A DNA stretch of 64,000 bases from Acutalibacteraceae bacterium (GCA_045591525.1 JAZNTA010000191.1:31461-95460); one strand, 5' to 3'; shown: positions 17,081 to 60,786, counted from the first letter of the stretch. Made by a program: numbers and translations. The notes: a model not told the origin generated them from the letters alone.

Positions 17081-17110
17081 AAGATGAATAACTAAAGATT
17101 TCAACAATAT

Positions 17111-19650: not shown

Positions 19651-19688
19651 AAACTAGCACAACTTCGGTTATGCTAGTTTATATTTAT
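19651..19688 (+). terminator. intrinsic terminator
   Basis: AAACTAGCA...TGCTAGTTT stem followed by a T-rich tail. Confidence 0.55.
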
Positions 19689-19744
19689 CATCGACAAAAC
19701 AAAACTTATCCGTCATAATTACATAAAAAACGGAGGTTTTGTCA

Positions 19745-20647
19745 GTGAGTTTACAATCTGAAATAAACAACTATATTGCAGTTTGCGAAAATCTTAAGGG
19801 TTTAAGCAAACTGACAATAAAGGCATATAAAATTGATTTGAAACAATATCAAGAATATGCCAATGATTTGGACTGGCTTTCTAAAGAATGTATGACAACA
19901 TATATCGACCATTTATATAAAGCTTACAGTCCTAAAAGCGCTAAAAGAAAAATAGCGTGTCTAAAAGCATTCTATAGATATATGGAAATGGAAGATATCA
20001 TAGAATATAATCCATTTCATAAAATTAAAATTAAATACAAAGAACCAATTGTATTACCCAAGACCATTTCATTAAACGATATAAAGAATATATTGATTTT
20101 TTCGTATAATCAAAAAGAAAACAGTAAAACAAGTATTCAGAAAGAAACAAGATTACGAGATGTACTAATTTTAGAAATGCTATTTTCAACGGGAATGCGT
20201 GTATCTGAGATTTCACACTTGTCTGTTAACGATATCAATTTAATAGATGGGACAATTCGTATATTGGGTAAAGGTTCAAAGGAAAGGATAATGTGTCTAA
20301 CAAATGAATCTGTTCTGAAACTCTTAACTGAATATATAAACACTCAAAATAACACATCAAGCTATATGTTTACCAACCGTTTAGGAAACAGGTTGTCCGA
20401 ACAGTCAATAAGAAATATGGTAAACACCCATGCCTGCGCAGCCGGTGTAACGCAACATATAACGCCTCATATGTTCCGTCACACCTTTGCTACGGCTCTG
20501 CATGATGAAGATGTAGATATTAGGTATATTCAACAACTGCTTGGCCACAGTTCAATTTCAACAACCCAAATCTATACTCACATCAGTACAAACAAGATAC
20601 ATAAGCTTCTTGAAGAAAAACATCCAAGAAACAAGATAATACTCTGA
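19745..20647 (+). CDS. tyrosine site-specific recombinase (XerC/D-like integrase)
   Basis: 'GMRVSEI', 'GKGSKER', 'HMFRHTFAT', 'LLGHSSISTTQIYTH' (R-K-H-R-H-Y catalytic pattern); start GTG 19745 or TTG 19739. Confidence 0.85.
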   Translation: MSLQSEINNYIAVCENLKGLSKLTIKAYKIDLKQYQEYANDLDWLSKECMTTYIDHLYKAYSPKSAKRKIACLKAFYRYMEMEDIIEYNPFHKIKIKYKEPIVLPKTISLNDIKNILIFSYNQKENSKTSIQKETRLRDVLILEMLFSTGMRVSEISHLSVNDINLIDGTIRILGKGSKERIMCLTNESVLKLLTEYINTQNNTSSYMFTNRLGNRLSEQSIRNMVNTHACAAGVTQHITPHMFRHTFATALHDEDVDIRYIQQLLGHSSISTTQIYTHISTNKIHKLLEEKHPRNKIIL

Positions 20648-20656
20648 TTACAAATA

Positions 20657-20689
20657 CCTTCTGCACAATTGTTGTGTGGAAGGTTTTTT
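20657..20689 (+). terminator. intrinsic terminator
   Basis: CCTTCtgCACAAttgTTGTGtgGAAGG plus a T6 run. Confidence 0.75.
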
Positions 20690-20694
20690 CTTTT

Positions 20695-20718
20695 AAAGGA
20701 TAATTCTCAATTATCTGA
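20695..20718 (+). promoter_or_regulatory. palindromic operator candidate, copy 1
   Basis: AAAGGATAATTCTCAATTATCTGA; the same 21 nt occur upstream of the convergent gene at 23421-23445. Confidence 0.5.
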
Positions 20719-48305: not shown

Positions 48306-49095
48306 TTACTGATAAAGCGAGAATTCTAGCTGTTGGCCACTCGCTACACGTAAAATTTCTCTCGCATCATCTTGTGAAATATTTGCATCTCCGTTAACAT
48401 CCGCTAATACAAATTGTACAACTGTAACACTGCTTGCATTATTGGAAGCTGTAAGTGCTAAGGATGCATCAGCTGTAGTTATTGTACCATCACTGTTTAC
48501 ATCACCCATAATATAACTATCAGTTGAACTTGTTTCTATATAATATCCTATAGCGGAATTAAAAAATGTTGAGGCATCCTTCACGGTATCATATGAAATC
48601 CAGCCATAACCTCCAAGTCCCCAATCTGTGCCCCAAGAATTTATAAATTTGAATGCACCACTATCCCCCATATTGTCATCATAACCAATTAAGCATATGG
48701 TATGGTTAGCCTGTTTAGAGCCTGAAACAGTATCATATATACTATTGTTTGAGTTTAAATTAGTGAAGTCTGGGTATATTTCAATACCTATTACAACACC
48801 GTAATTCTGATAAATTTTTTCTTTTATATTCTTAATACCCGCTATTGTATGGGTAGTGCATTTATATAAGTTGGCATTTGCTATTTGTCTTGCTTTGGAA
48901 AGTTTGAGGTTTTATCGACAGACGCTGGTAATGTTAATCTTGTTTCTGCTGTTGGTTCCATACGTTCTAATATTTCTGCGTATGAATCTGGTATCAACCC
49001 CGTTTTATAGGTGAAATTTTCACTAGCCGAGCCTGGTACCTGTAAATATATCAGTATTAGAGATAAAGATATTATTACTGAAAAAACTTTTTCAT
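48306..49095 (-). pseudogene. degraded papain-like (C1) peptidase-dockerin gene
   Basis: Intact C-terminal half ('ANHTICLIGYDD', 'NSWGTDWGLGGYGWISY', dockerin). The signal peptide and 'LPASVD' lie in another frame, after a frameshift in the A6 run at 49081-49086. The catalytic-Cys region is absent. Confidence 0.65.
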
Positions 49096-49233
49096 ACTAT
49101 TTCTTCCTTTCATTTTTTGTATTAAGTTTATCATTGTGTACACATCGTCTAAAGTAGTATCCTCCTTTTCAAATGGTCTTCTTTATTTTAAATTTATCAG
49201 TATTCTCTATATCTGTCACTATAAATAACAAAC

Positions 49234-49264
49234 TGCAAGAAAATCTTGTCAAATTGCAAGAAAT
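49234..49264 (-). promoter_or_regulatory. double-repeat box g
   Basis: TGCAAGAAAAtcttgtcaaatTGCAAGAAAT, 139 nt upstream of the pseudogene ATG. Confidence 0.6.
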
Positions 49265-49271
49265 ATAAAAT

Positions 49272-49298
49272 AACGGTACGACAATTTGCCGTACCGTT
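49272..49298 (-). terminator. intrinsic terminator
   Basis: AACGGTACG...CGTACCGTT then a T-rich tail on the minus strand. Confidence 0.65.
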
Positions 49299-49303
49299 AA
49301 ACT

Positions 49304-50590
49304 CTATCTGTTTTTCAATATCATTATAGTTGTGATGAATTCTCTATTGTGTTCATCATATTCCCAAGTATAATCGCCATTATATTTTTTCAATGTGTTT
49401 TTTAGACTTTTCAATCCAAAGCCATGAAATCTTTTATTGTTTTTAGTTGTTTTTAAAATTAAATTATCAGAAATCGGTTTTTCATCACAACTATTTCTTA
49501 CAACAACTATATCATATGTGTTCCTATGATCTGTAAAGAAATCAACATATTTATCTTTTGATTTTTCTGCCGCTTCGACTGCATTATCTAATACATTACC
49601 CAAAATTGCAACTAAATCATACATCTCTACACCCAGAAGATTTGAGAGCCTAACATCATAAGTAAAATTTATTCCTTTCAATTCACACTCTGTAATGTAT
49701 TTATTTATGATAACATCAAGATAATGATTGCCACTATGAGCTGTTTGGCTATATTTTCTCAACTCTACTTGCATTTTGGTAAGATATTTATCAATTTCTT
49801 CATTAGAACTTAACTCTTTAATTGCAGCAAGATGTTTTTGTGTATCGTGAGCATATATAGCTAAATTCTCATTCTGTTGTTCAAGTATCTGATAATATGT
49901 TTTATCATTTTCCAATTTAGTTAGTTCACTTTCCAACCGCAATAATTTTGTTTCTTTGTCAACACTGCGTCTATAAGAAACAAAAATCAAAATAGTTGAC
50001 AACAAAAGCGAAAAACTTATTATTGAAATTATATACTTATAAGTTTGCGACAAATGAAAATCACTATTTATACTCCACAAAAACAACAATACAACAATTA
50101 CAACAATAGGATAAAAATAATATGTTTTTGGTATCGGAGTTGAGGTATCTTTTGTTTTAATAAATTTAATTAACAAAAGGCAACAAAAGAAATAAATAGT
50201 CTTACTTATAACAACATTTAACAAATATTGCGACACATCATGTGAGTTTGCAATTACATCTCTGTTTAACACTATGGATATAATAAAAATTGTTATGTAT
50301 TCAGTACAAGTTGACATGATATCAAGAATAATTGATAAAAAAATGGATTGCTTTAAATTAATATTAAAACAACAAAAAGCAAAAACCATGTTTATTATAA
50401 GGAAACAAACAAGATTCAACCATATGGTTGAAAAGAAAAGATATACTGTTGCACCTAATCCAAATGTTATTAACCCTATAGCACAGCAAAAAAGATGGCT
50501 CTTTTTTCTATTGCTAACTTGGCTGAAAAAATAATATGAAATAAACAGTTCAAGTAAATATACTGCTGATACAGACAAAATTTCTGACAT
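49304..50590 (-). CDS. AgrC-like (HPK10-type) sensor histidine kinase
   Basis: 6-7 N-terminal TM helices, H-box 'YAHDTQKHL', GHKL ATPase 'LGNVLDNAVEA...HGFGLKS'. Confidence 0.8.
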   Translation of the reverse strand: MSEILSVSAVYLLELFISYYFFSQVSNRKKSHLFCCAIGLITFGLGATVYLFFSTIWLNLVCFLIINMVFAFCCFNINLKQSIFLSIILDIMSTCTEYITIFIISIVLNRDVIANSHDVSQYLLNVVISKTIYFFCCLLLIKFIKTKDTSTPIPKTYYFYPIVVIVVLLFLWSINSDFHLSQTYKYIISIISFSLLLSTILIFVSYRRSVDKETKLLRLESELTKLENDKTYYQILEQQNENLAIYAHDTQKHLAAIKELSSNEEIDKYLTKMQVELRKYSQTAHSGNHYLDVIINKYITECELKGINFTYDVRLSNLLGVEMYDLVAILGNVLDNAVEAAEKSKDKYVDFFTDHRNTYDIVVVRNSCDEKPISDNLILKTTKNNKRFHGFGLKSLKNTLKKYNGDYTWEYDEHNREFITTIMILKNR

Positions 50591-50591
50591 G

Positions 50592-51290
50592 TCATTTACC
50601 TCTTAAATACATAAACCAATATTTATGGAAATCTGCTTGTTTTCTCGTTGCAACGGATATTCTGATATCTTCGTTAATAAAAACTTCTGTATAAGAGTAC
50701 TTTGTAACATAATGCAGATTAATTAGAAAACTTTTATGAACTTGATAAAAAAATGTATTAGGTAATTTTTCTTTCCAATATTCCAAAGTCTGAGTTATTT
50801 TATATTCACCGTTTTTTGTGACAACAATAATCTCTCTGTTTTCTCGCTTAATATAATAGATATCGTCTACCAATACCTTTAAATGTGTTCCTCCTTGAGC
50901 AAGATAAACATCAACATATGTTTCGTCTAAATACTCTAATGCTTTATCTAATCCAGAATATAATCTATTAACATCAAAAGGTTTCTCAAAGAACCTAAAA
51001 ACTCGCAAATCCATAGCGTCATCCTGAAATTCGGGATAATTGGTTACGAAAAAAACCACTACTTTACTGTTTCTTCGTTTTAATTCTTTTGCAACAGTTA
51101 AACCATCAATATTACCCAATTGGATATCTAAGAAAGCCAAGTCAAAAACATCTTTACCTGTGATAATCTCTTGGGCAGATGTTGAAACGACATATTCTGG
51201 TTTAATAAAGTGATTTTTCATATATTCTTCAACATGCAATCTCAATTCATCCAAGTAATTGGATTGATCATCACATAAAAGTATTTTCAC
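50592..51290 (-). CDS. LytTR-family response regulator (AgrA-like)
   Basis: Receiver 'ILLCDDQ...FLDIQL'; C-terminal LytTR 'FYQVHKSFLINLHYV'; AGAGGAGG RBS plus GTG 51290. Confidence 0.85.
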   Translation of the reverse strand: MKILLCDDQSNYLDELRLHVEEYMKNHFIKPEYVVSTSAQEIITGKDVFDLAFLDIQLGNIDGLTVAKELKRRNSKVVVFFVTNYPEFQDDAMDLRVFRFFEKPFDVNRLYSGLDKALEYLDETYVDVYLAQGGTHLKVLVDDIYYIKRENREIIVVTKNGEYKITQTLEYWKEKLPNTFFYQVHKSFLINLHYVTKYSYTEVFINEDIRISVATRKQADFHKYWFMYLRGK

Positions 51291-51310
51291 ACAAAGACCT
51301 CCTCTTATAA

Positions 51311-51335
51311 ACAAAAACTACCACGATTGTGGTAG
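51311..51335 (-). terminator. hairpin between the XRE gene and the response regulator (terminator or attenuator)
   Basis: CTACCACaatcGTGGTAG followed by TTTTTGTT on the minus strand. Confidence 0.5.
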
Positions 51336-51362
51336 CAAGTTTAGCACAAATATTATTTTTAG

Positions 51363-51680
51363 TCAAATACTGCCAATATACAGTTCAATAAAAGATTTAA
51401 GAAATTTTTGATTGTCTGGTGGACACTTTGACAACAAACAAATTATATCATTTTCTGTTTTCGTATCAATTCTACCAATAAGATAGTAATCAGGTGTACC
51501 GCCTAAAACTTCACACAAATCTAATATAGTAGATGTTGTAGGTAGACATTTCCCTCTTTCCATGCTTGATATATGGTTTTTGGAAAGAGAAAGTTTTTCA
51601 GCCAATTCTTCTTGTGTTATTGATTTTTCCTTGCGTTTTTGCATTATCCGTATACCAATAAGTCTATTATCAAATTGCAT
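51363..51680 (-). CDS. XRE-family HTH regulator
   Basis: 'ITQEELAEKLSLSKNHISSMERGK' HTH_3 pattern. Confidence 0.8.
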   Translation of the reverse strand: MQFDNRLIGIRIMQKRKEKSITQEELAEKLSLSKNHISSMERGKCLPTTSTILDLCEVLGGTPDYYLIGRIDTKTENDIICLLSKCPPDNQKFLKSFIELYIGSI

Positions 51681-51782
51681 AAAATCACCATTTTTTATTT
51701 ATGGTATCATTTAAAACTAAATGCATAAACAAATTTTGATAGAACTATTCTGTAATATAATTATTTTTACGCATAAAATTTG

Positions 51783-51812
51783 TTTTTTTGTGTAATATTG
51801 TGATTTCTTGCA
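51783..51812 (+). promoter_or_regulatory. partial double-repeat box in + orientation upstream of the agrD-like/agrB genes
   Basis: ATTTCTTGCA (51803-51812) matches the box repeat; the partner about 20 nt upstream (TTTTTTGTG) is degenerate. Confidence 0.35.
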
Positions 51813-51896
51813 AAAAAACACAAATTTATAGCAATTTAAAAAATTCATTGAAGGAGCTTTATTTTTTATGATATCATTCTTTCGGAGGTGTTATAA

Positions 51897-52049
51897 ATGA
51901 AAAATTATAAAATCAAATTTAACCAAATTATGAAAAACAGTATTGAAACTGCATTAAAACTTAATGCAAACAACACATCATCAACTGTTCTTCATCAACC
52001 CAAGGCCCCAGCAAAATTGAAAAAATTCAGTAAAATCAGTTCTAAATGA
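51897..52049 (+). CDS. agrD: AgrD-like autoinducing-peptide precursor (50 aa)
   Basis: GGAGGTG RBS; amphipathic N-terminus; 'SSTVL-HQPKAPAKL' resembles the clostridial AgrD ring plus QPxxPxxL tail; stop overlaps the agrB ATG (ATGA). Confidence 0.6.
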   Translation: MKNYKIKFNQIMKNSIETALKLNANNTSSTVLHQPKAPAKLKKFSKISSK

Positions 52050-52642
52050 TTGGTCGATTATCTGAAAAGATAGTTTCGTACCTAATCGCTTTTGAAACTA
52101 TACCCGAAGCAGAGCGTGAATTATATCAATACGGAGTATTTTTATTAATTTCTCAAATACTATATTTCACCGTAACACTGATATTTGGATTTGCATTGGG
52201 TATAGTCTTTGAAAGCATTGTTTTTTTTATTGCATTTCAAAGTATTCGTCAGATCGCAGGTGGTTATCATGCCACTACTGAAACAAGGTGTGAAATTCTA
52301 TCTGCTGGAGCTATTTTATTAAGTCTTATTTTTATCAAACTAGTTAACGAAAATGCGCTGTTCACATATACATTAGCTATAGCTTTAGTATGTGCTAGTG
52401 TAATTTTTTTATTGGCACCATTAGATACTGTTCAAAGACTGTTGTCAGATGATGAGTATATTGCATTTCGTAAAAAAACACGCGTTATTCTCATAGTTAT
52501 CATAACAGTAATAGCAGTTTCTTATATTATGAAAATAAATATTGTTTTTACTTCCTGTTGCACAAGTCTAATCCTAGAGGGATTTTTACTTTTGGTAGGG
52601 AAAATAAATAGAGAAAGTATAAATTCAAACACCTGTGAATAA
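52046..52642 (+). CDS. agrB: AgrB-family peptide-processing membrane protease
   Basis: 'RQIAGGYHATTETRCEILS' (conserved R..GG.H......C), multiple TM helices, 198 aa. Confidence 0.85.
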   Translation: MIGRLSEKIVSYLIAFETIPEAERELYQYGVFLLISQILYFTVTLIFGFALGIVFESIVFFIAFQSIRQIAGGYHATTETRCEILSAGAILLSLIFIKLVNENALFTYTLAIALVCASVIFLLAPLDTVQRLLSDDEYIAFRKKTRVILIVIITVIAVSYIMKINIVFTSCCTSLILEGFLLLVGKINRESINSNTCE

Positions 52643-52799
52643 ATTTGGGGTGCTTTATACTCTTGATATTTCATATTTCAAAATTTAAATTTGATATTTT
52701 GAAATAAAGATATAATTTTTTTACCTACAATAGATAACAGATTTTATTTCACTTATTAGTCAGCAAAACAATATTTGAACCATATATAGTATGTATAAA

Positions 52800-52835
52800 A
52801 AGAAGCTAGATGAATTTATTCATCTAGCTTCTTTT
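52800..52835 (+). terminator. intrinsic terminator
   Basis: AAGAAGCTAGATGA-atttat-TCATCTAGCTTCTT then a T-rich tail. Confidence 0.7.
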
Positions 52836-52955
52836 CCTTTGTCATTAAATGATTTAAAGAAATTTTTGATTAACATATGGGAAGAATACATAGCTAAATA
52901 CCCATAATCTCCGGTTTTTGAGACTGAAATTCAAAAATAAAGGAGATTATATAAA

Positions 52956-53411
52956 ATGTATAAAAATAAAAGTTTTGATTACGATTTATGGACAACCAAT
53001 GATAATGGCGTTAAGCGTTACTGGGCAAGAATCCGTGCAACACAGGAAGTTGTTGAGGTTGACTTGAAAACATTGCGTTTTTTAAGAGCTGAAGAAAAAA
53101 AGATATACAGGGCTATAGAAGATGCCCGTAACAACGCAGGTACAGTTTTGTCATATGAAATTTTTGAAGATGAAGAAGCTTCAGGTGAATGGTTGATTGA
53201 TGAAAAAGACTTAGAAACTCAAGTACTTACGCAATCAGAAATTGATGCTGTTGTAAAAACACTCACACCGAAACAGTTTTTGATTTATAAAAACTGCATC
53301 TTAGAAGGAATGGAGTTGCGAGAATTTGCAAGAAAAAACAACTTGTCTTACTCAACAGTTAAAGACATAAGAGATGCTATCAGAAAAAAATTTCATAAAA
53401 ATTTTAATTGA
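52956..53411 (+). CDS. sigma-70 region-4-like DNA-binding protein
   Basis: C-terminal 'LTPKQFLIYKNCILEGMELREFARKNNLSYSTVKDIRD' HTH; usual partner of serine recombinases in clostridial elements (from memory). Confidence 0.55.
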   Translation: MYKNKSFDYDLWTTNDNGVKRYWARIRATQEVVEVDLKTLRFLRAEEKKIYRAIEDARNNAGTVLSYEIFEDEEASGEWLIDEKDLETQVLTQSEIDAVVKTLTPKQFLIYKNCILEGMELREFARKNNLSYSTVKDIRDAIRKKFHKNFN

Positions 53412-53435: not shown

Positions 53436-53800
53436 GTCCGTTGTCAAGTAGAGGGGGTTAAAACCTCGATTGCACTTTGACAACAGAATAGATATTTTAT
53501 CAAGTACGTTGCTATTATTCTTGCAGAGGCAAGAGCCACAATAGCGCTGCGCCAGGATCCGACAGAACAGATGTTGTTTTTTATTAACAACATCTTGTTC
53601 TGTTGTGGGAGCGATAAACAGTTGCTATAGATATCAAATAGCTTTTGATATGGCGATAACCGGTAATAGTGATAATGATACTCCTGTTTAGTCACAGGTC
53701 GAGCGTGATAAAACCGTCGCAACCAATGAGGGCAGTTGGCAGAGAACCTGCTGAGGGTGAGATTCCCGTGGAGCTGAGTAGCTATCAGCCGCTTGATAAG
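53436..53800. ncRNA. GC-rich, hairpin-dense non-coding segment (candidate structured RNA or recombination-control region)
   Basis: Visibly GC-richer than the flanks. Nested stems: TTGTCAA/TTGACAA, a 17-bp hairpin at 53561-53605 extended by CCACAA/TTGTGG, ATATCAAA/TTTGATAT, CCTGT/ACAGG, GCTGA/TCAGC. Confidence 0.4.
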
Positions 53801-53986: not shown

Positions 53987-54049
53987 TGCTGGATATATAA
54001 ATGTTGTTGTGATAGTGTTGTGTCGAAATCAAGTAAAGGTGGTGCAATA

Positions 54050-55642
54050 ATGGCCGGCGAAAGAGTATATTGTTTATATCGTGTATCAACTTCAAAGCAA
54101 GTTGATATGGATGAACATAATTTAGCGGATATACCTATGCAACGAAAAGCTTGCAGAGAGTTCGCTAAAAAAATGGATTGGGACATTATTCGTGAGGAAC
54201 AAGAAAACGGAGTATCCGGATTCAAGAAAAGTGCTGCTGAAAGAGATAAGATACAACTTATTAAAGAGCATGCTGCAAAAGGTTTGTTTGACATATTACT
54301 CGTTTTTATGTTTGACAGATTGGGAAGAAAATCAGATGAGACACCATTTATTGTAGAATGGCTTTGCTCACAAGGAATTAAGGTTTGGAGTGTCAATGAA
54401 GGTGAACAACGCTTTGACTCTCATACAGATAGACTTACCAACTACATAAGATATTGGCAAGCTGATGGTGAAAGCCAAAAAACTGCAATTAGAACAAGAA
54501 CTGCCATGGAGCAAATGGTTATGGATGGCAGATGGCGTGGTGGTATACCACCATTTGGATATAGAGCAGTAAAAAGCGGTATAGTTAACAAAAGAAAACA
54601 TGAAGTATATAAATTAGAGATAAACGAAGAAGAAGCTGTTATAGTAAGACTTATATTCGACCTATCTGCAAACAGCGGATACGGAAGATGGAAGATTGCT
54701 ACCACATTAAATGAACGTGGTTATAAAACTCGTAGTGGTGGTACATGGGTAGATTCAAGTGTAGGACATATACTTCATAACAATATATACATAGGTATGT
54801 TAAAGAATGGTTCAGCAATATCTGGACCGTATGAAGAATTAAGAATTATTGATGATGCTACTTTCTATAAAGTACAAAAACAAACAAATTTACGAACTAA
54901 TGAAAAAAACAATGAAAGGACAATCCCTTTAAATATATCAGGTCAATCACTGTTATCCGGTAATGTGTTCTGTGGACATTGTAAAGGCAGACTCACATTA
55001 ACAACCAACGGTGAAACCCGAAAACATGCAGACGGTACATCTGTACACAGAAGAAAAGTCAGATACGTTTGCTATAATAAGACAAGAAAAAAATTAAACT
55101 GCGATGGCCAAACAGGATACACTATGCGTATCTTGGATGAAAAGGTCATCGCAGTTTTACATATGATTTTTGATAAAATGAAAGATATGACACCACAGGA
55201 AATGGCAAGTCATATTCATGACAAACAGATGTCAAATCTAAAAATTGAGTTATCAGCAGCAAAATCAAAATTGAATAAGGCAGAGAAAGAATACAATGCC
55301 TTGAAAAGTGAAGTTGTAAAATCAATACAAGGTGAAAGTAAGTACAATGCAGATATACTATCAGAACTTTTGATATCAGCTCAAGAAACGTTAGAAATTG
55401 CAAAGAAAAGTTATTTAGAAACTCAAAACAACTATACTCAAGGTGAATTACAAATACAGGAATTAACGAACAACTATACTCGAATACTCAGATGGTCAGA
55501 GATTTTTGATGAGAGTCCTATTGAAACTAAAAAGCAAATAGCCAGTATGATAATAAACAGAGTGTATGTTTATGAAGGTTATCGGTTGGAGTTTGAGTTT
55601 AATATTAATTTTGAGAACATTTACAAAAACAAAATGCAATGA
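54050..55642 (+). CDS. large serine recombinase
   Basis: N-terminal resolvase domain 'VYCLYRVSTSKQ', recombinase and zinc-ribbon (CGHCKG...CYNK) domains, coiled coil; 530 aa. Confidence 0.85.
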   Translation: MAGERVYCLYRVSTSKQVDMDEHNLADIPMQRKACREFAKKMDWDIIREEQENGVSGFKKSAAERDKIQLIKEHAAKGLFDILLVFMFDRLGRKSDETPFIVEWLCSQGIKVWSVNEGEQRFDSHTDRLTNYIRYWQADGESQKTAIRTRTAMEQMVMDGRWRGGIPPFGYRAVKSGIVNKRKHEVYKLEINEEEAVIVRLIFDLSANSGYGRWKIATTLNERGYKTRSGGTWVDSSVGHILHNNIYIGMLKNGSAISGPYEELRIIDDATFYKVQKQTNLRTNEKNNERTIPLNISGQSLLSGNVFCGHCKGRLTLTTNGETRKHADGTSVHRRKVRYVCYNKTRKKLNCDGQTGYTMRILDEKVIAVLHMIFDKMKDMTPQEMASHIHDKQMSNLKIELSAAKSKLNKAEKEYNALKSEVVKSIQGESKYNADILSELLISAQETLEIAKKSYLETQNNYTQGELQIQELTNNYTRILRWSEIFDESPIETKKQIASMIINRVYVYEGYRLEFEFNINFENIYKNKMQ

Positions 55643-55815
55643 ATATTTATATTTCTTGAATTGATCTTTTGCCCAAAAACAAGACCTGCTTTTTGTGGAA
55701 AAAGTCGAATTTTGTAAAAACCGAAAATTTTTTTGAAGTATTTGCAAAATTTTGTCATATATATTTAGATGCATTTTACATATGAATATTAATACTTTGT
55801 GTGAGGTATACTATC

Positions 55816-56595
55816 ATGAGTACAGAAAAAGAACAAGCTCCTCCCAAAAGAAGCAAACTTACACCTGATAACAAGTTAGATATAATGTCTATTCTAATAT
55901 CAATAGTATCAATTGTAATTTCTGTAACATTGTTGCTACATCAGATAACCCTAGAGAGATTACCAAATGTTGTATGTTTAAATTCCGATGTAGCAATACA
56001 TATTTTTAAAGATGAATCTGAATATGAATTATTTACTTATTCAGAACAAATTATAAGTATACCAATACATAACATCGGAGTAGGAACAGCCCAAAATTGC
56101 GAAATAACCTGGGTTTATGAAAGTGTGGAAAAGGCTTACTATTCCTTGATGGACATGTTAAAACCATATGTTAGTTTTCATGAATTTAACGGTAATACCC
56201 TTTTACATGGAAAACCTTACTTGTATAATTATAGTTTTCAATATAGAAATAGCAAACTAGATAGCATATGGGTATTAAATACATATCCTGAAAAAACTAC
56301 GGACTATTCCGTTGATTTGGACTCCATGTATTGTCCATATATATTACCTGTAACCGAAAACAATACAAAAATTTTTTTCTATCTTCCAAACCCCATTGCA
56401 CCAATGTTAGTTGATTTGGCTAAATATGAAATAAACGAACCCTTATCTTTAGACTTGGAAATTTCTTTTCAAGATATTGCTGGAAAAGCATATAGTGAAA
56501 TATTTCGTTTAACGTTTACTTTTGATGAATTTACGGAAGATATTGAAAACAATAAGAACTACTGTATATACAAAATAGTTTCTCAAAAATTATAA
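55816..56595 (+). CDS. hypothetical single-TM protein
   Basis: GAGG RBS plus ATG 55816; TM 'IMSILISIVSIVISVTLLL'. Confidence 0.55.
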   Translation: MSTEKEQAPPKRSKLTPDNKLDIMSILISIVSIVISVTLLLHQITLERLPNVVCLNSDVAIHIFKDESEYELFTYSEQIISIPIHNIGVGTAQNCEITWVYESVEKAYYSLMDMLKPYVSFHEFNGNTLLHGKPYLYNYSFQYRNSKLDSIWVLNTYPEKTTDYSVDLDSMYCPYILPVTENNTKIFFYLPNPIAPMLVDLAKYEINEPLSLDLEISFQDIAGKAYSEIFRLTFTFDEFTEDIENNKNYCIYKIVSQKL

Positions 56596-56639
56596 TAATC
56601 GTACACACGCTGCTAAATAAATGTCTAATAGGTTATTGC

Positions 56640-56668
56640 TTGACAACTAATATTATTGAGTACATAAT
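56640..56668 (+). promoter_or_regulatory. sigma-A promoter of the CBASS operon
   Basis: TTGACA, 17 nt, CATAAT. Confidence 0.6.
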
Positions 56669-56731
56669 TATATATGGATATTATTTAGCAAGATCACAAA
56701 AATAAAAACTTTAATAAGTGGGTGTTTTATA

Positions 56732-57790
56732 ATGAGTTTACAAAAATATTTTATTGAGTTTAATGACACAATAAAAATGGATTTTGACGTTAAAAGTGAA
56801 TTAAAAGAGAAAAGAGATATATTATTAGGCATATTAAGAAACTCTGATGATTTGCCTTCATTTTCAGAATACAATCAAGGTAGTTATAAAATGAATTTGG
56901 GTGTAGAACCTTTAGATAAAGAATATGATATTGATGTTGGTCTTAGATTCAATGCTAATAGTAAAGATTACACCCCCATGGAGTTAAAAAATATTATTTA
57001 CGAATTATTGAAAAACCATACTGATTATGGAGCGACAATAAAAAAGCCATGTGTAACCGTTACATATAAGAAAGATGGTGAAGCGGCGTACCATGTTGAT
57101 TTAGTAGTATACACATATGAAGACAAGGACGATACTAGTAGTCAACTTTTTCTTGCTCGGGGTAAAAGTAGTGAATCAGACGAAACTTGTTGGGAAAAGT
57201 CTGATCCTGTTGGATTGGTTGATTATGTAAGTGAAAAGTATTATGGTGATGACCATAAAGATGATAGAGAACAATTTAGACGTATTATAAGATACTTAAA
57301 AAGGTGGAAAAACAAGAGATTTAGTAATACAGGAAATGCTGAACCACCTAGTATTGGTATTACATTAATAGCTGTTGAGATGTTTGAGGTTTCTAAAACA
57401 TATGATGTTTTAACAAAAAAAGATTCATACAATGATTTTGATGCATTACTAAAGTTTTTGAAGGAATTAAAAACTTTGTTTGTCTATGTTGGTACATCTG
57501 ATACTGGTAGAAAACTTTACAAAATAGAATATAATTTACCAAGCACACTGAAGTTTGAAAATAATGTTAATATTTTTAGGAAGATGACTAATAATTATAT
57601 GACAGATTTCAAGGAAAAAGTAGATTCATTAATAGCGGATTTAGAAAGTGTTGAAGCCGAAGTTGATGAAGTAGAGCAGTGTGTTCAGTTGCGTAAAATT
57701 TTCGGTGACTCTTTCCCGGTACCTGAAAAAGAAACTGCATCAAAAAAACAAGTTGAATATATTTCTAGAACCAGTGCATCGGGAGTCTAA
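56732..57790 (+). CDS. CD-NTase (cGAS/DncV-like nucleotidyltransferase, SMODS)
   Basis: 'QGSYKMNLGVEPLDKEYDIDVGL' (GS...DxD) plus downstream 'HVDLV'; followed by Cap2 and Cap3. Confidence 0.8.
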   Translation: MSLQKYFIEFNDTIKMDFDVKSELKEKRDILLGILRNSDDLPSFSEYNQGSYKMNLGVEPLDKEYDIDVGLRFNANSKDYTPMELKNIIYELLKNHTDYGATIKKPCVTVTYKKDGEAAYHVDLVVYTYEDKDDTSSQLFLARGKSSESDETCWEKSDPVGLVDYVSEKYYGDDHKDDREQFRRIIRYLKRWKNKRFSNTGNAEPPSIGITLIAVEMFEVSKTYDVLTKKDSYNDFDALLKFLKELKTLFVYVGTSDTGRKLYKIEYNLPSTLKFENNVNIFRKMTNNYMTDFKEKVDSLIADLESVEAEVDEVEQCVQLRKIFGDSFPVPEKETASKKQVEYISRTSASGV

Positions 57791-57796
57791 ACGATT

Positions 57797-59515
57797 ATGC
57801 CTTTAAAAGATGTAGAATTAATGTTATCAACTCTTGCAGAAATACAAAATTTACACATTAATACATGTAAACAGTTTAATAATCATGATTATTGGGGTAT
57901 TTTTGAGTGTGATTTAATCATAAAAGAAGTTTGCAGCACTCCAATATTGATATGTATACCAAATAATTGGACAACCGAATTAATTGATATATATATCAAG
58001 AATTATAATAATTTTAATTTCATCCCCCATGTGGATGTTTTTGGCAAAATTTGTTTGTTTAAAACAGAAGGTTTGTTGATTGAACACAACTTAGTAGGTT
58101 TAGTAGAACAATCTATAGAGAGAGCTAAGAAGATTTTACTTGATGGATTAACAGATTCAAACAAAAAAGATTTTATTGACGAATTTGAATCATACTGGAT
58201 TCAACTACCACAAGAAAAATCATGTTATTTTGTTTTACCCAAAGACGAAAAAAACGCTGTTATTAAATTTACTTTTGGAAAAAATAAAACGAAAAACAGC
58301 TCCATATTATTTGTTTGTGAAACTCAAGAAAGATTAAACCAATGGAATATTGATTCAGGAACTTTTTTTAACGCTGCATATTTTGTTTTAGATGCAAAAG
58401 ATTATATTTATCCACCTGATATACGCAATAAAGTTTCTGTAGATTTTTTAAATAAATTATTGAAGTTAGTACCATACAATGTAGCTGCATCAATTTTAAG
58501 AAAACTTAGCAGAGAAAAACTTATTGTTTTTTTATTAAAACAACCTGATGGAACCAAGAATTATGTGGGTTTTTATTTAACTGGTAATATAATAGATAAT
58601 AAAATTTCTTTCTCATTTGAAAAAACGAATGAAGTTCAACCGGTTTATATAAACATACTAAACAAAACTTTTCTTATGACTAGAACTAATTTCAGTAAAT
58701 TTAATTTGCATGAAAAGAGAATATTAGTTATAGGCTGTGGTTCTGTTGGTGGATATCTTGTTAACGAATTGGCAAAATCTGGATATGAAAAAATAACTAT
58801 TGTTGATAATGATAAACTTCGCCAAGAAAATATATTCAGGCACATTCTTGGCCTAAAATATTTAACACAATACAAGAGTGTTGCTTTAAAAGATTTAATA
58901 GAGAAAAATATTCCCGAAACTTCCTTAATAACCTCAGTAGAAAAAATAGAAAATGCGATATCTAATAACGAAATAAATCTACTAGACTATGATTTAATAA
59001 TTTCTGCAACAGGTAATCATAATGTTAATAGATGGTTGAATTCATATATTTATAAACATCAAATTTCCGTGCCTATTATATATGCATGGAATGAAGTTTT
59101 AGGTATAGGTAATCATGTTGCACATTTTAAATATGGTAATGCTGGATGTTATAATTGTCTTTTTAAAAAAGACGATAATCTAAAACCACTGTATGACAGA
59201 ACCGCCTATTGTGAACCTAACCAAGATATTACCCAAAGTATTGGTGGTTGTGCAGATACGTATATTCCATATGGTAACTCAGTGTCATTACGTACGGTAT
59301 GTATGTGTTTAGATTTAATACAAGATATATTTTCTGGAAAAACATCCGAAAATCTTATAATATCATCAAAAGGTAATCCTCAATATTTTATTGAACAAGG
59401 GTATAAAGTTTCTAATAGATATTTAAAGCAAACAGAAACTGTCGAGATTATTAATGGTAGTGATTTTATAAACAACGAATGTGGTGTGTGTTGCAGTGAT
59501 CTTAGAAACCAATAA
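57797..59515 (+). CDS. cap2: Cap2 (E2-like N-terminus fused to a ThiF/E1-like adenylyltransferase)
   Basis: Rossmann 'ILVIGCGSVGGYLVNELAKSG...IVDNDKL' and paired Cys 'CYNC'; 572 aa. Confidence 0.8.
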   Translation: MPLKDVELMLSTLAEIQNLHINTCKQFNNHDYWGIFECDLIIKEVCSTPILICIPNNWTTELIDIYIKNYNNFNFIPHVDVFGKICLFKTEGLLIEHNLVGLVEQSIERAKKILLDGLTDSNKKDFIDEFESYWIQLPQEKSCYFVLPKDEKNAVIKFTFGKNKTKNSSILFVCETQERLNQWNIDSGTFFNAAYFVLDAKDYIYPPDIRNKVSVDFLNKLLKLVPYNVAASILRKLSREKLIVFLLKQPDGTKNYVGFYLTGNIIDNKISFSFEKTNEVQPVYINILNKTFLMTRTNFSKFNLHEKRILVIGCGSVGGYLVNELAKSGYEKITIVDNDKLRQENIFRHILGLKYLTQYKSVALKDLIEKNIPETSLITSVEKIENAISNNEINLLDYDLIISATGNHNVNRWLNSYIYKHQISVPIIYAWNEVLGIGNHVAHFKYGNAGCYNCLFKKDDNLKPLYDRTAYCEPNQDITQSIGGCADTYIPYGNSVSLRTVCMCLDLIQDIFSGKTSENLIISSKGNPQYFIEQGYKVSNRYLKQTETVEIINGSDFINNECGVCCSDLRNQ

Positions 59516-59999
59516 ACGAAAAATAAAAGTAAATAATACACTTTTACAAATAATGCGACAATATATACAATTCACCCATAGTGACACCGAAGCTGGTGGA
59601 ATATTAGTAGGTCGGGAAAATATTAGTGATTCAAATTTAATTATAGAACACATTAGCACACCTTTGCCAAATGATATTAGAACCCGATGCAGATATATTA
59701 GGAAAGATGAAGGTCATATAGATTTTTATAATCAATTATATAGAGATACTAATGGTATATATGCATACGTAGGTGAATGGCATACTCATCCGGAAGATGT
59801 TCCACGGTATTCGATTATTGATTTGAAAAACTGGAAAAGAATTGCTAAAGAGCATCCAATGGATAAACAATATCATTTTATTATTGGCAGACAACAGATT
59901 GCGATTTGGGAAATGAATAAAAAGCAAATTAAACCTATATTGATTGGAATGGTTGATTGGAATGAAAAATTTTTGCAAGAAAATAGTAGTGAATGCTAG
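59496..59999 (+). CDS. cap3: Cap3 (JAB/JAMM isopeptidase)
   Basis: 'EAGGILVG' and 'GEWHTHPEDVPRYSIID' JAMM motif; start uncertain (GTG 59481, 59484 or 59496). Confidence 0.8.
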   Translation: MILETNKRKIKVNNTLLQIMRQYIQFTHSDTEAGGILVGRENISDSNLIIEHISTPLPNDIRTRCRYIRKDEGHIDFYNQLYRDTNGIYAYVGEWHTHPEDVPRYSIIDLKNWKRIAKEHPMDKQYHFIIGRQQIAIWEMNKKQIKPILIGMVDWNEKFLQENSSEC

Positions 60000-60786
60000 A
60001 CCAATATCACAGATTATAATCATAGTAATAGCTTTTCTACTACCAATAATATTGGACTTTACCGGACTATTTACACCACCTGATGATACTGTAAGTGTAG
60101 ATATAAAGCATAATCTACTTGTGATATTATGGTCTTATGGTAATATTGCGATCGGTTTTGCTTTTTCTATCACAGTATTGTTTTTAATGAGGAAATTTAA
60201 TAAGGATGTTTCTTTTAATCATGGAAATACTTATAAGGATTATCCTTTCTTTTGGTATTGGTTTTGTTCTAAAGTTTTAGGATATGAAAAATGCAATTTG
60301 GTATTAGTCCCTATACACCTTCAGTTTAAACTTGTCTTAAATGATACATTTAAAGAATATTTTTGGGAAAACATTGAAACTCATGAAGATATAAAATTCA
60401 CCAAGGATAAGCGAAATATGACGGTAGTATCAAATGAAATTAATATAGTCATTGCAGACACGTATCCTATTGAAAAAAAGCAATTACCACAAAATAAAAA
60501 AGGTAATCCAACAATATGGATTTCAAGAGATAAAGAATTAGTTAACTGTAGATATTATAGTAATAAATTCGTTGATGCTGTTATTAATGCAGTCAAAGAA
60601 AATGAAAATACATACAAAACTATAAATATTTTTGCAACAACAAATCCCGAAAGTACTTTTAATGTTTGTCGAAAAGCAATAAAATCTGGAGATAGAAGTA
60701 GTTTTGACAAAGTTATAGTTTTTCAACAAGATAGCGATGGCATAAGGAAATTTAAACCCAAGGGAAAAACTGTTTACAAACGCTAA
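59962..60786 (+). CDS. putative CBASS effector: two N-terminal TM helices plus an unassigned C-terminal domain
   Basis: Overlaps the cap3 3' end; TM 'IIIIVIAFLLPIILDF' and 'ILWSYGNIAIGFAFSITVLFL'. Confidence 0.6.
   Translation: MKNFCKKIVVNARPISQIIIIVIAFLLPIILDFTGLFTPPDDTVSVDIKHNLLVILWSYGNIAIGFAFSITVLFLMRKFNKDVSFNHGNTYKDYPFFWYWFCSKVLGYEKCNLVLVPIHLQFKLVLNDTFKEYFWENIETHEDIKFTKDKRNMTVVSNEINIVIADTYPIEKKQLPQNKKGNPTIWISRDKELVNCRYYSNKFVDAVINAVKENENTYKTINIFATTNPESTFNVCRKAIKSGDRSSFDKVIVFQQDSDGIRKFKPKGKTVYKR

Follow-up and report, generated by a model that had tools for sequence, protein, structure and literature searches.

An agr-type peptide signalling module carried by an integrative and conjugative element, with a predicted regulon of the element's own cargo promoters

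A 64,000-nt stretch of DNA from an Acutalibacteraceae bacterium (GCA_045591525.1, JAZNTA010000191.1:31461-95460; hereafter the window, to whose positions all coordinates refer) carries at 49304-52642 a locus that the sequence-level membership tests of the family confirm as a complete agr-type peptide signalling system, comprising a peptide precursor (AgrD), its peptidase/cyclase (AgrB), a sensor histidine kinase (HK), a LytTR-type response regulator (RR) and an additional XRE-family regulator (XRE). The source genome (2.84 Mb, 37% GC) is that of a dockerin-encoding member of the Clostridia, and the locus lies within an integrative and conjugative element (ICE) found in Clostridia of the gut or rumen. 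We consider it probable that this module senses cell density and switches on the cargo promoters of the ICE itself, and that it has diversified among copies of the element in a pherotype-like manner.

The predicted regulon is marked by a 35-nt box of consensus TTTCTTGCAATTTGACAATATTTTCTTGCAGTTTG, composed of two 9-bp repeats with a period of 21, which occurs in seven copies between 25158 and 49263 on the minus strand. When the entire 2.84-Mb genome was scanned with a position weight matrix (PWM) built from the seven copies themselves, these scored 44-55 bits and the next best site reached 16 bits; all seven strong boxes lie inside the element and all are on the strand that encodes RR and HK. 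Ordered by the position of their 5′-ends, they precede decayed C1 peptidase and dockerin genes (49263, -), the gene for a NACHT protein (47605, -), the RHS2 gene (43911, -), a membrane-protein operon (36474, -), the RHS1 gene (35045, -), a second membrane-protein operon (27691, -) and the gene for an S8 subtilase (25192, -). Every strong box ends exactly 14 nt before the -35 position, where the hexamer is mostly poor (nGACA or worse), and a good -10 follows after 16–18 nt. Taking the transcription start to be ~7 nt after the -10, the G residues of the repeats fall near -52 and -73, close to the G-51 and G-72 that Clostridioides difficile RgaR needs (PMC10602386).

The promoter region of agrD itself holds a degenerate LytTR-type double repeat at 51804..51833 (+), reading TTTCTTGCA-N12-TTTATAGCA and scoring 10 bits on the PWM, which also ends 14 nt before a -35 and has the right strand and register within the 216-nt target region. 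Strong double repeats stand upstream of agrD in the related loci L033, L034 and L037, and a double repeat directly follows the HK terminator in L023, L026, L029, L032, L036 and L043-L047. Furthermore, the element of genome G025, whose RR is 38% identical to that of the window, has a box variant of its own (GTGCAGTTTGG..., period 22), present at two sites of the accessory region. As to the first boxed gene past the kinase, L023 (1167-2219) and L024 encode an intact 350-aa C1 peptidase with dockerin, and the window retains at 48306-49250 (-) a decayed version from which a 121-aa C-terminal open reading frame (ORF) is left. Half-box or near-box sequences (TTTCTTGCAGTTTG and TTTCTTGCAATTTGA) were also seen close to contig ends (G000:C68 at ~667 and C19 at ~449), and these end sequences are possibly unassembled fragments of further boxed cassettes.

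The ICE in which the strong boxes are found measures ~73 kb, extending from ~16.9 kb left of the window to window position ~55.7 kb. Its part within the window begins (1-17 kb) with TrbL (TrbL_5), a VirB4-like ATPase, an NlpC/P60 protein, a MobL relaxase and a coupling protein (T4SS-DNA_transf), continues with an accessory region (17-53 kb) and closes (53-55.6 kb) with a conserved end that encodes a sigma-like protein of 151 aa (52956-53411, +) and, with Resolvase, Recombinase and Zn_ribbon_recom domains, a large serine recombinase (54020-55642, +), protein identity at this end being 90-97% across ICE copies. A type IV secretion system (T4SS), relaxase, coupling protein and end recombinase are accordingly found together, and the same element is present in different species. 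Against contig G025:C55 the DNA is 93-97.5% identical from C191:14582 to window position 17103, nothing alignable remains between 17.1 and 52.87 kb except a Xer-like recombinase gene, and identity is back at 52872. At the right end, six copies are ~94-95% identical (92% in the shorter G025 match) from 52800/52875, where identity begins at the agrB terminator, to 55611-55764; because identity stops there in six copies, we place the right end of the ICE just past the recombinase gene. Several further species-level genomes of the genus encode a coupling protein and a recombinase with 96-97% identity to those of the window, which indicates recent horizontal spread; among 96 other genomes of the genus, 7 have a recombinase that is at least 92% identical. 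The initial annotation of this DNA had taken the module for cargo of a conjugative element; its residence on an ICE holds, but the module proves to be a position-conserved, hypervariable part of the element in all 8 readable copies and not an incidental passenger. The Xer-like tyrosine recombinase gene (19682-20715), which is 92% identical to that of the G025 element, may point either to a nested cassette or to a recombination function that has been conserved.

A module so placed could serve the mobility of the element in the first instance, controlling excision and conjugative transfer by donor density with cargo control secondary, as TraR/TraI do on Ti plasmids and, in reverse, Rap-Phr does on ICEBs1. 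The module does adjoin the sigma-like/recombinase end in every copy (Ser/Tyr integrases occupy that end in distant relatives), and it is kept in all 8 ICE copies that could be examined. Against this, a strong terminator-like hairpin of 17 pairs (52798..52835, +; terminator scan) separates agrB from the sigma-like gene, and in the genome PWM scan no box was found in the vicinity of the sigma-like and recombinase genes or of those for the T4SS, the seven strong copies all preceding accessory units. Because of this distribution of boxes we favour cargo control over transfer control, and regard the latter as unlikely to be the principal role of the module.

Within the conserved ICE, the module is fixed in place and hypervariable in sequence. 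The genes XRE-RR-HK and, divergent from them, AgrD-AgrB occupy the same position in all 8 ICE copies with a readable recombinase-proximal region, and the nine ICE copies compared fall into five agr groups (the window with L023; L032, L036 and L047; L043; L044; L045 with L046). Between these groups, protein identity amounts to 18-33% for the HK sensor domain, 32-43% for the HK catalytic part, 27-40% for RR, 29-44% for XRE and 27-44% for AgrB, and the sigma-like proteins of the same copies are 90-97% identical. Within a group, L032 and L036 share 90% identity in RR, 93% in XRE and 83% in the HK catalytic part, as against 56% in the sensor and 64% in both AgrB and AgrD, a contrast typical of the hypervariable region of classical agr systems. 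The predicted ring sequences of the signal peptides are STVLH, SSVIY, TIAAY, TIVVF, CLSIY, SGTIF and SLFCY. This divergence resembles that of pherotypes and suggests that the cells counted by an ICE variant would be only those that harbour this variant themselves.

The initial annotation had assigned all four agr functions to the locus and divided them between two divergent units, the RR/HK unit being headed by an XRE gene and the precursor gene lying 5′ of agrB, and on each of these points it was borne out. Pfam and NCBIfam hidden Markov models (PF04647, LytTR, HATPase_c_5 and TIGR04223) run on the ORFs upheld the AgrB and LytTR assignments and likewise backed AgrD and the kinase. On the minus strand lie HK, an AgrC-like sensor histidine kinase of 428 aa (49304..50590; HATPase_c_5, 77.9 bits), RR, an AgrA-like response regulator of 232 aa (50592..51290; LytTR, 69 bits; Response_reg, 49.3 bits), and XRE, a helix-turn-helix regulator of 105 aa (51363..51680; HTH_3, 50.3 bits) that is divergent from agrD and whose gene occupies the same position in most related loci. 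On the plus strand, the AgrD precursor of 50 aa (51897..52049; TIGR04223, 27.9 bits, cut-off 19) is followed by the polytopic AgrB peptidase/cyclase of 198 aa (52046..52642; PF04647, 119.4 bits, cut-off 23), the two genes overlapping by 4 nt (ATGA). The mechanical ORF call for RR reaches upstream to a TTG at 51314, an unlikely start; the true start is most likely the GTG at 51290, since AGGAGG stands in front of it and the resulting 232 aa match the length in relatives (232-233 aa).

In an alignment of 18 diverse AgrB homologues, down to 19% identity, the invariant columns were Y29, G72, G73, H75, C82 and P125. A His and a Cys seven residues apart point to H75/C82 as the catalytic pair, corresponding to H77 and C84 of the Staphylococcus aureus enzyme. 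The score of AgrB against the NCBIfam equivalog was 38 bits, under the cut-off of 282, and a solved-structure search gave no match for this protein. By hydropathy, HK has ~7 hydrophobic segments in residues 1-205, followed by an H-box AHDTQKH (H248), an N-box LDNAVEA and a G-box GFGL; its closest solved structure is S. aureus AgrC (4bxi, E 7e-4), and it matches the NCBIfam AgrC model weakly over its full length. The RR receiver shows the acidic pocket DD6-7, the phospho-acceptor D in FLDIQL and the conserved T and K, and is followed by the LytTR DNA-binding domain. The AgrC and AgrA equivalog cut-offs of NCBIfam lie far above the scores reached by HK and RR.

AgrD contains no Cys, and its core reads ...NANNTSSTVLH|QPKAPAKL. 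The family alignment gives the motif ANSTx[C/S/T]xxxxQPK[AV]P, in which column -5 from the invariant QP holds C in 6, S in 5 (the window included) and T in 2 of the 13 close relatives; the two distant outgroups misalign. Given the lack of Cys and the Ser at the ring column of the family, the product is most likely a serine lactone with the ring S29-T-V-L-H; the alternative register S28-S-T-V-L is less favoured but compatible with the sequence. Serine-lactone autoinducing peptides (AIPs) are described for Staphylococcus intermedius in a passage of PMC12940132 that cites Ji et al. 2005. In one agr group of the ICE (L032:5891-6031 and L036:5929-6066, of genomes G007 and G025, and also L047) Thr replaces the Cys/Ser, in the pattern …NSTS-T-IAAY/IVVF-QPK with a Ser one residue before the Thr. 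In these precursors the ring would either lie in a shifted register or be linked through Thr, so that L032 and L036, with Thr at the usual position, may use a ring residue or register undescribed for AIPs. To our knowledge, a Thr-linked ring does not occur among described AIPs.

The order of the genes had been called atypical in the initial annotation, a description that a comparison of synteny does not sustain. AgrB was found in 8 of 36 genus relatives, and 7 of the 9 AgrB loci of the genus have AgrD->AgrB divergent from RR->HK, mostly headed by XRE, the other two being colinear (RR-HK-AgrB-AgrD); two AgrB loci from another family read RR-HK-AgrD-AgrB. Searching a protein database returned 244 AgrB homologues at E 0.001, most of the 120 best listed being ~46-55% identical, and an AgrB search for related loci in genome contigs added 3 distant loci. 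All six metagenomic homologue clusters sampled (P0003, P0092, P0041, P0085, P0076 and P0045) show HK<-RR<-XRE divergent from AgrD->AgrB; one of them is listed in 341 collection blocks, and the three of its contigs shown come from human gut metagenomes. The map of these clusters runs from cargo (often RHS) through HK, RR and XRE in one direction, and in the other through AgrD, AgrB, in some cases a second XRE, the sigma-like protein and PemK to a serine or tyrosine integrase. The layout is accordingly atypical solely against staphylococcal agrBDCA and usual in this clade, and agrD also precedes agrB in C. difficile agrACDB (PMC3754575).

Several neighbouring features were recorded in the course of this comparison. 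In many relatives (L026, L043-L046, L054 and L055) the 3′-end of agrB is overlapped by another gene of the XRE family, with a product of 125-138 aa, which is absent from the window. Between the sigma-like gene and the recombinase gene, a GC-rich non-coding block holds a pemK RNA motif (53672-53771, +; Rfam RF02913, 59.4 bits, gathering score 34.8); distant relatives carry a PemK toxin gene at this position, and the window has none. A type II CBASS operon (CD-NTase, E1/E2 Cap2 and SUa-2TM effector; 55801-60786, +) probably lies outside the element, because similarity to the other copies ends at 55611-55764, before the operon.

Transcription units were delimited with a terminator scan. In 5.1 kb it called 5 terminator-like sites, where shuffled sequence gave 1.5 ± 1.1, and each of the three transcription units ends at one of these sites. 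In addition to the hairpin after agrB, the sites that end units are a hairpin closing the RR-HK unit (49299..49271, -; 13-bp stem, then TTTTATATTT), which is followed by the first box in an order repeated in relatives, and one lying past the stop codon of XRE and before the ribosome-binding site (RBS) of RR (51336..51317, -; 8-bp stem, then TTTTGTTTAT). The latter, GCTACCAC-AATC-GTGGTAGT plus a T-run, spans 51307..51336 (-), also forms in the minimum-free-energy fold and lies ~20 nt from the RBS. A predicted RR-HK promoter, TTGACT-17-TAAACT with TG (51338..51366, -; consensus match), has a -35 that overlaps the XRE stop codon and a -10 that ends 2 nt before the 5′ arm of this hairpin. The divergent agrDB unit has a predicted promoter TTGAAG-18-TATCAT with an extended -10 TG (51848..51877, +; consensus match), and TGATAnnAT-like elements occur at the same position in relatives. 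Scanned against Rfam, the intergenic stretches of the agr locus matched no known RNA.

Two interpretations of the hairpin before RR were weighed. The initial annotation had seen in it a terminator-like structure through which read-through might be assayed, and it could be a regulated attenuator or 5′ stabiliser of a single XRE-RR-HK operon in which RR-HK has no promoter of its own. The short distance of hairpin and T-run from the RBS (~20 nt) fits such a device, as do the common orientation and tight spacing of XRE, RR and HK in all loci. In 13 of 16 related loci, however, a stem of 7–14 bp plus a T-run stands just 5′ of the RR RBS, conserved in position and not in sequence, and all 13 have a TTGACn-17-TAnnnT promoter (9-11 of 12 consensus positions) at the 5′ arm of these otherwise unrelated hairpins, the -10 ending between 13 nt inside the stem and 2 nt before it. 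The fold, moreover, shows no evident alternative anti-terminator pairing, and no Rfam family matches at the hairpin. We thus retain the terminator-like character of the structure and regard the attenuator as improbable; most likely it terminates transcription of XRE and has the promoter of RR-HK nested within it, and RR-HK transcripts would escape termination because a start ~7 nt past the -10 leaves out the 5′ arm.

A 10-codon ORF upstream of agrD (MISFFRRCYK, 51868..51900, +), which the initial annotation had included in the plus-strand unit, does exist, and its stop codon overlaps the agrD ATG. As a gene or coupled leader peptide it was rejected: it is without counterpart in L023, L026 and L029, and it is probably not transcribed with agrD, because the TG of the predicted extended -10 is part of its ATG, which would so lie upstream of the transcription start. 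The ORF is probably a chance occurrence. The same region between XRE and agrD contains the palindrome ATAGAA-N3-TTCTGT (51738-51752); the degenerate box is in turn overlapped by an inverted repeat of 20 nt (51776-51795 / 51808-51827).

Taken together, these features can be arranged into a circuit whose steps of binding, activation, transcription start and ring chemistry are predictions from sequence. Basal expression of agrD-agrB would arise from a promoter whose -35 is fair and whose -10 is extended, together with a weak RR box; AgrB would cut AgrD before QPKAP and cyclise the core, most likely to the serine lactone S-T-V-L-H, and the exported peptide would be sensed by the polytopic AgrC-like kinase. 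The kinase would then phosphorylate the LytTR regulator, which is expected to bind the double repeat of 21-bp period ending 14 nt upstream of the -35 and, once bound, to activate seven otherwise weak cargo promoters. The cargo so activated would comprise two RHS toxins with the genes downstream of them, the membrane NACHT protein, dockerin proteins, the membrane-protein operons and the S8 protease. A weaker activation of agrDB itself would provide positive feedback, RR-HK would be transcribed from its own constitutive-looking promoter, and XRE, in what is the weakest step of the scheme, probably represses the divergent promoter region or sets its threshold.

Several observations weigh against this circuit. 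The box before agrD scores 10 bits, a value that 13 other genome sites equal, and for this reason autoinduction is weakly supported in the present copy. An operator for XRE was sought in the XRE-agrD region, where the palindromes are AT-rich and differ between lineages, and none could be assigned. Promoter calls are consensus matches in AT-rich DNA (38, compared with 30 ± 5 in shuffles), the ring register of AgrD is ambiguous, with Ser at both -5 and -6, and L023 and L037 have no hairpin before RR. Finally, decay of the C1 peptidase in the window means that parts of the regulon are eroding.

We also considered that the module might be an ordinary host quorum-sensing system merely riding a mobile element, with its main regulon on the chromosome as for S. 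aureus agr and C. difficile agr2. In keeping with this view, its AgrB is the sole one in the genome, and LytTR regulons are often indirect or RNA-mediated and would then be invisible to a box scan. The box is nevertheless restricted to the element, with none above 16 bits elsewhere in 2.84 Mb, and AgrB has a patchy distribution in the genus and moves together with the ICE, so that a host-centred system appears decidedly improbable. It is very improbable that the module is decaying or non-functional in this copy: AgrD lacks Cys, the agrD box is weak and the adjacent C1 peptidase is truncated relative to the 350-aa version of L023, but all five ORFs are intact with their catalytic and phosphorelay residues kept, Ser at the ring position recurs in five lineages and has its precedent in the S. 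intermedius serine lactones (PMC12940132, in the passage noted above), and the seven cargo boxes are near-perfect.

The predicted element-borne control of cargo by the module can be set beside several characterised systems. With S. aureus agrBDCA it shares the AgrB His/Cys peptidase, the AgrD precursor, a polytopic HPK10-type kinase and a LytTR regulator, as well as 9-bp direct repeats with a 12-bp spacer (the AgrA boxes of P2/P3) and a hypervariable AgrB-AgrD-AgrC sensor region that sets specificity groups. It differs in that D precedes B, in the two divergent units and the extra XRE gene, in a predicted ring Ser in place of Cys and in the absence of any evident RNAIII-like effector; furthermore, its predicted direct regulon consists of ICE cargo promoters, and the whole module diverges (RR 27-40%) inside one mobile element family. 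The clostridial systems C. difficile RgaS-RgaR/agrB1D1 and Clostridium perfringens VirS/VirR/agrBD (with VirR boxes) likewise combine a LytTR regulator with direct repeats ~21 bp apart, and RgaR-type repeats are centred near -51 and -72, the regulator activating AIP genes and a few boxed promoters (PMC10602386). In those systems, however, kinase/regulator and agrBD occupy separate chromosomal sites, whereas here they are together on an ICE with XRE; the boxed genes here encode RHS toxins, a NACHT protein and others, and the boxes have another sequence (TTCTTGCA type).

C. difficile agr2 (agrACDB) resembles the module in having agrD before agrB but is colinear (A-C-D-B) and has no XRE gene. Agr genes on a mobile element are known from phage phiCDHM1 (agr3; PMC3901668), whose set is without agrA, and neither agr2 nor the phiCDHM1 set has a described private element regulon. 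Streptococcus pneumoniae blp and Lactiplantibacillus plantarum pln have in common with the module a LytTR regulator, a pherotype-diverse peptide pheromone and identical double-repeat boxes before toxin/immunity cassettes; their pheromones are linear double-glycine peptides exported by ABC transporters, the systems are chromosomal and the cassettes encode small bacteriocins, in contrast to the predicted AgrB-made cyclic peptide and the RHS proteins of the element. By analogy, the closest characterised wiring would be the clostridial VirR/RgaR boxed regulon, and the closest logic that of the streptococcal and lactobacillal pheromone-controlled bacteriocin arrays. Our literature search brought up no description of an agr module that resides on an ICE and has an XRE gene of its own, and no paper on group-level agr diversification inside one ICE family, on a private boxed agr regulon with RHS toxins, or on LytTR control of RHS toxins.

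Gut-microbiome surveys count cyclic-lactone autoinducer clusters that stay uncharacterised (PMC11953309, PMC12940132), and the present locus offers these clusters a concrete role as a signalling module belonging to a conjugative element. The layout is ordinary for the clade; the interest lies in quorum sensing at the level of the element, whose predicted operator marks only its accessory genes, interbacterial RHS toxins among them. If the proposed circuit is true, mobile elements of gut anaerobes would run their own density-dependent weapon control, and their modules would supply a set of orthogonal peptide/kinase/regulator/operator parts. More tentatively, and with considerable doubt, integrative elements of a superfamily widespread among the Clostridia of gut and rumen might possess private, non-cross-talking quorum-sensing channels and fire an arsenal of RHS, NACHT and surface proteins at quorum. 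The agr module would in that case diversify as a whole, along with its XRE gene, regulator and operator variant, within an ICE that is 94-97% identical in its other parts. Should the reading as private channels prove true, it would amount to green-beard-like behaviour encoded by the mobile element and not by its host.

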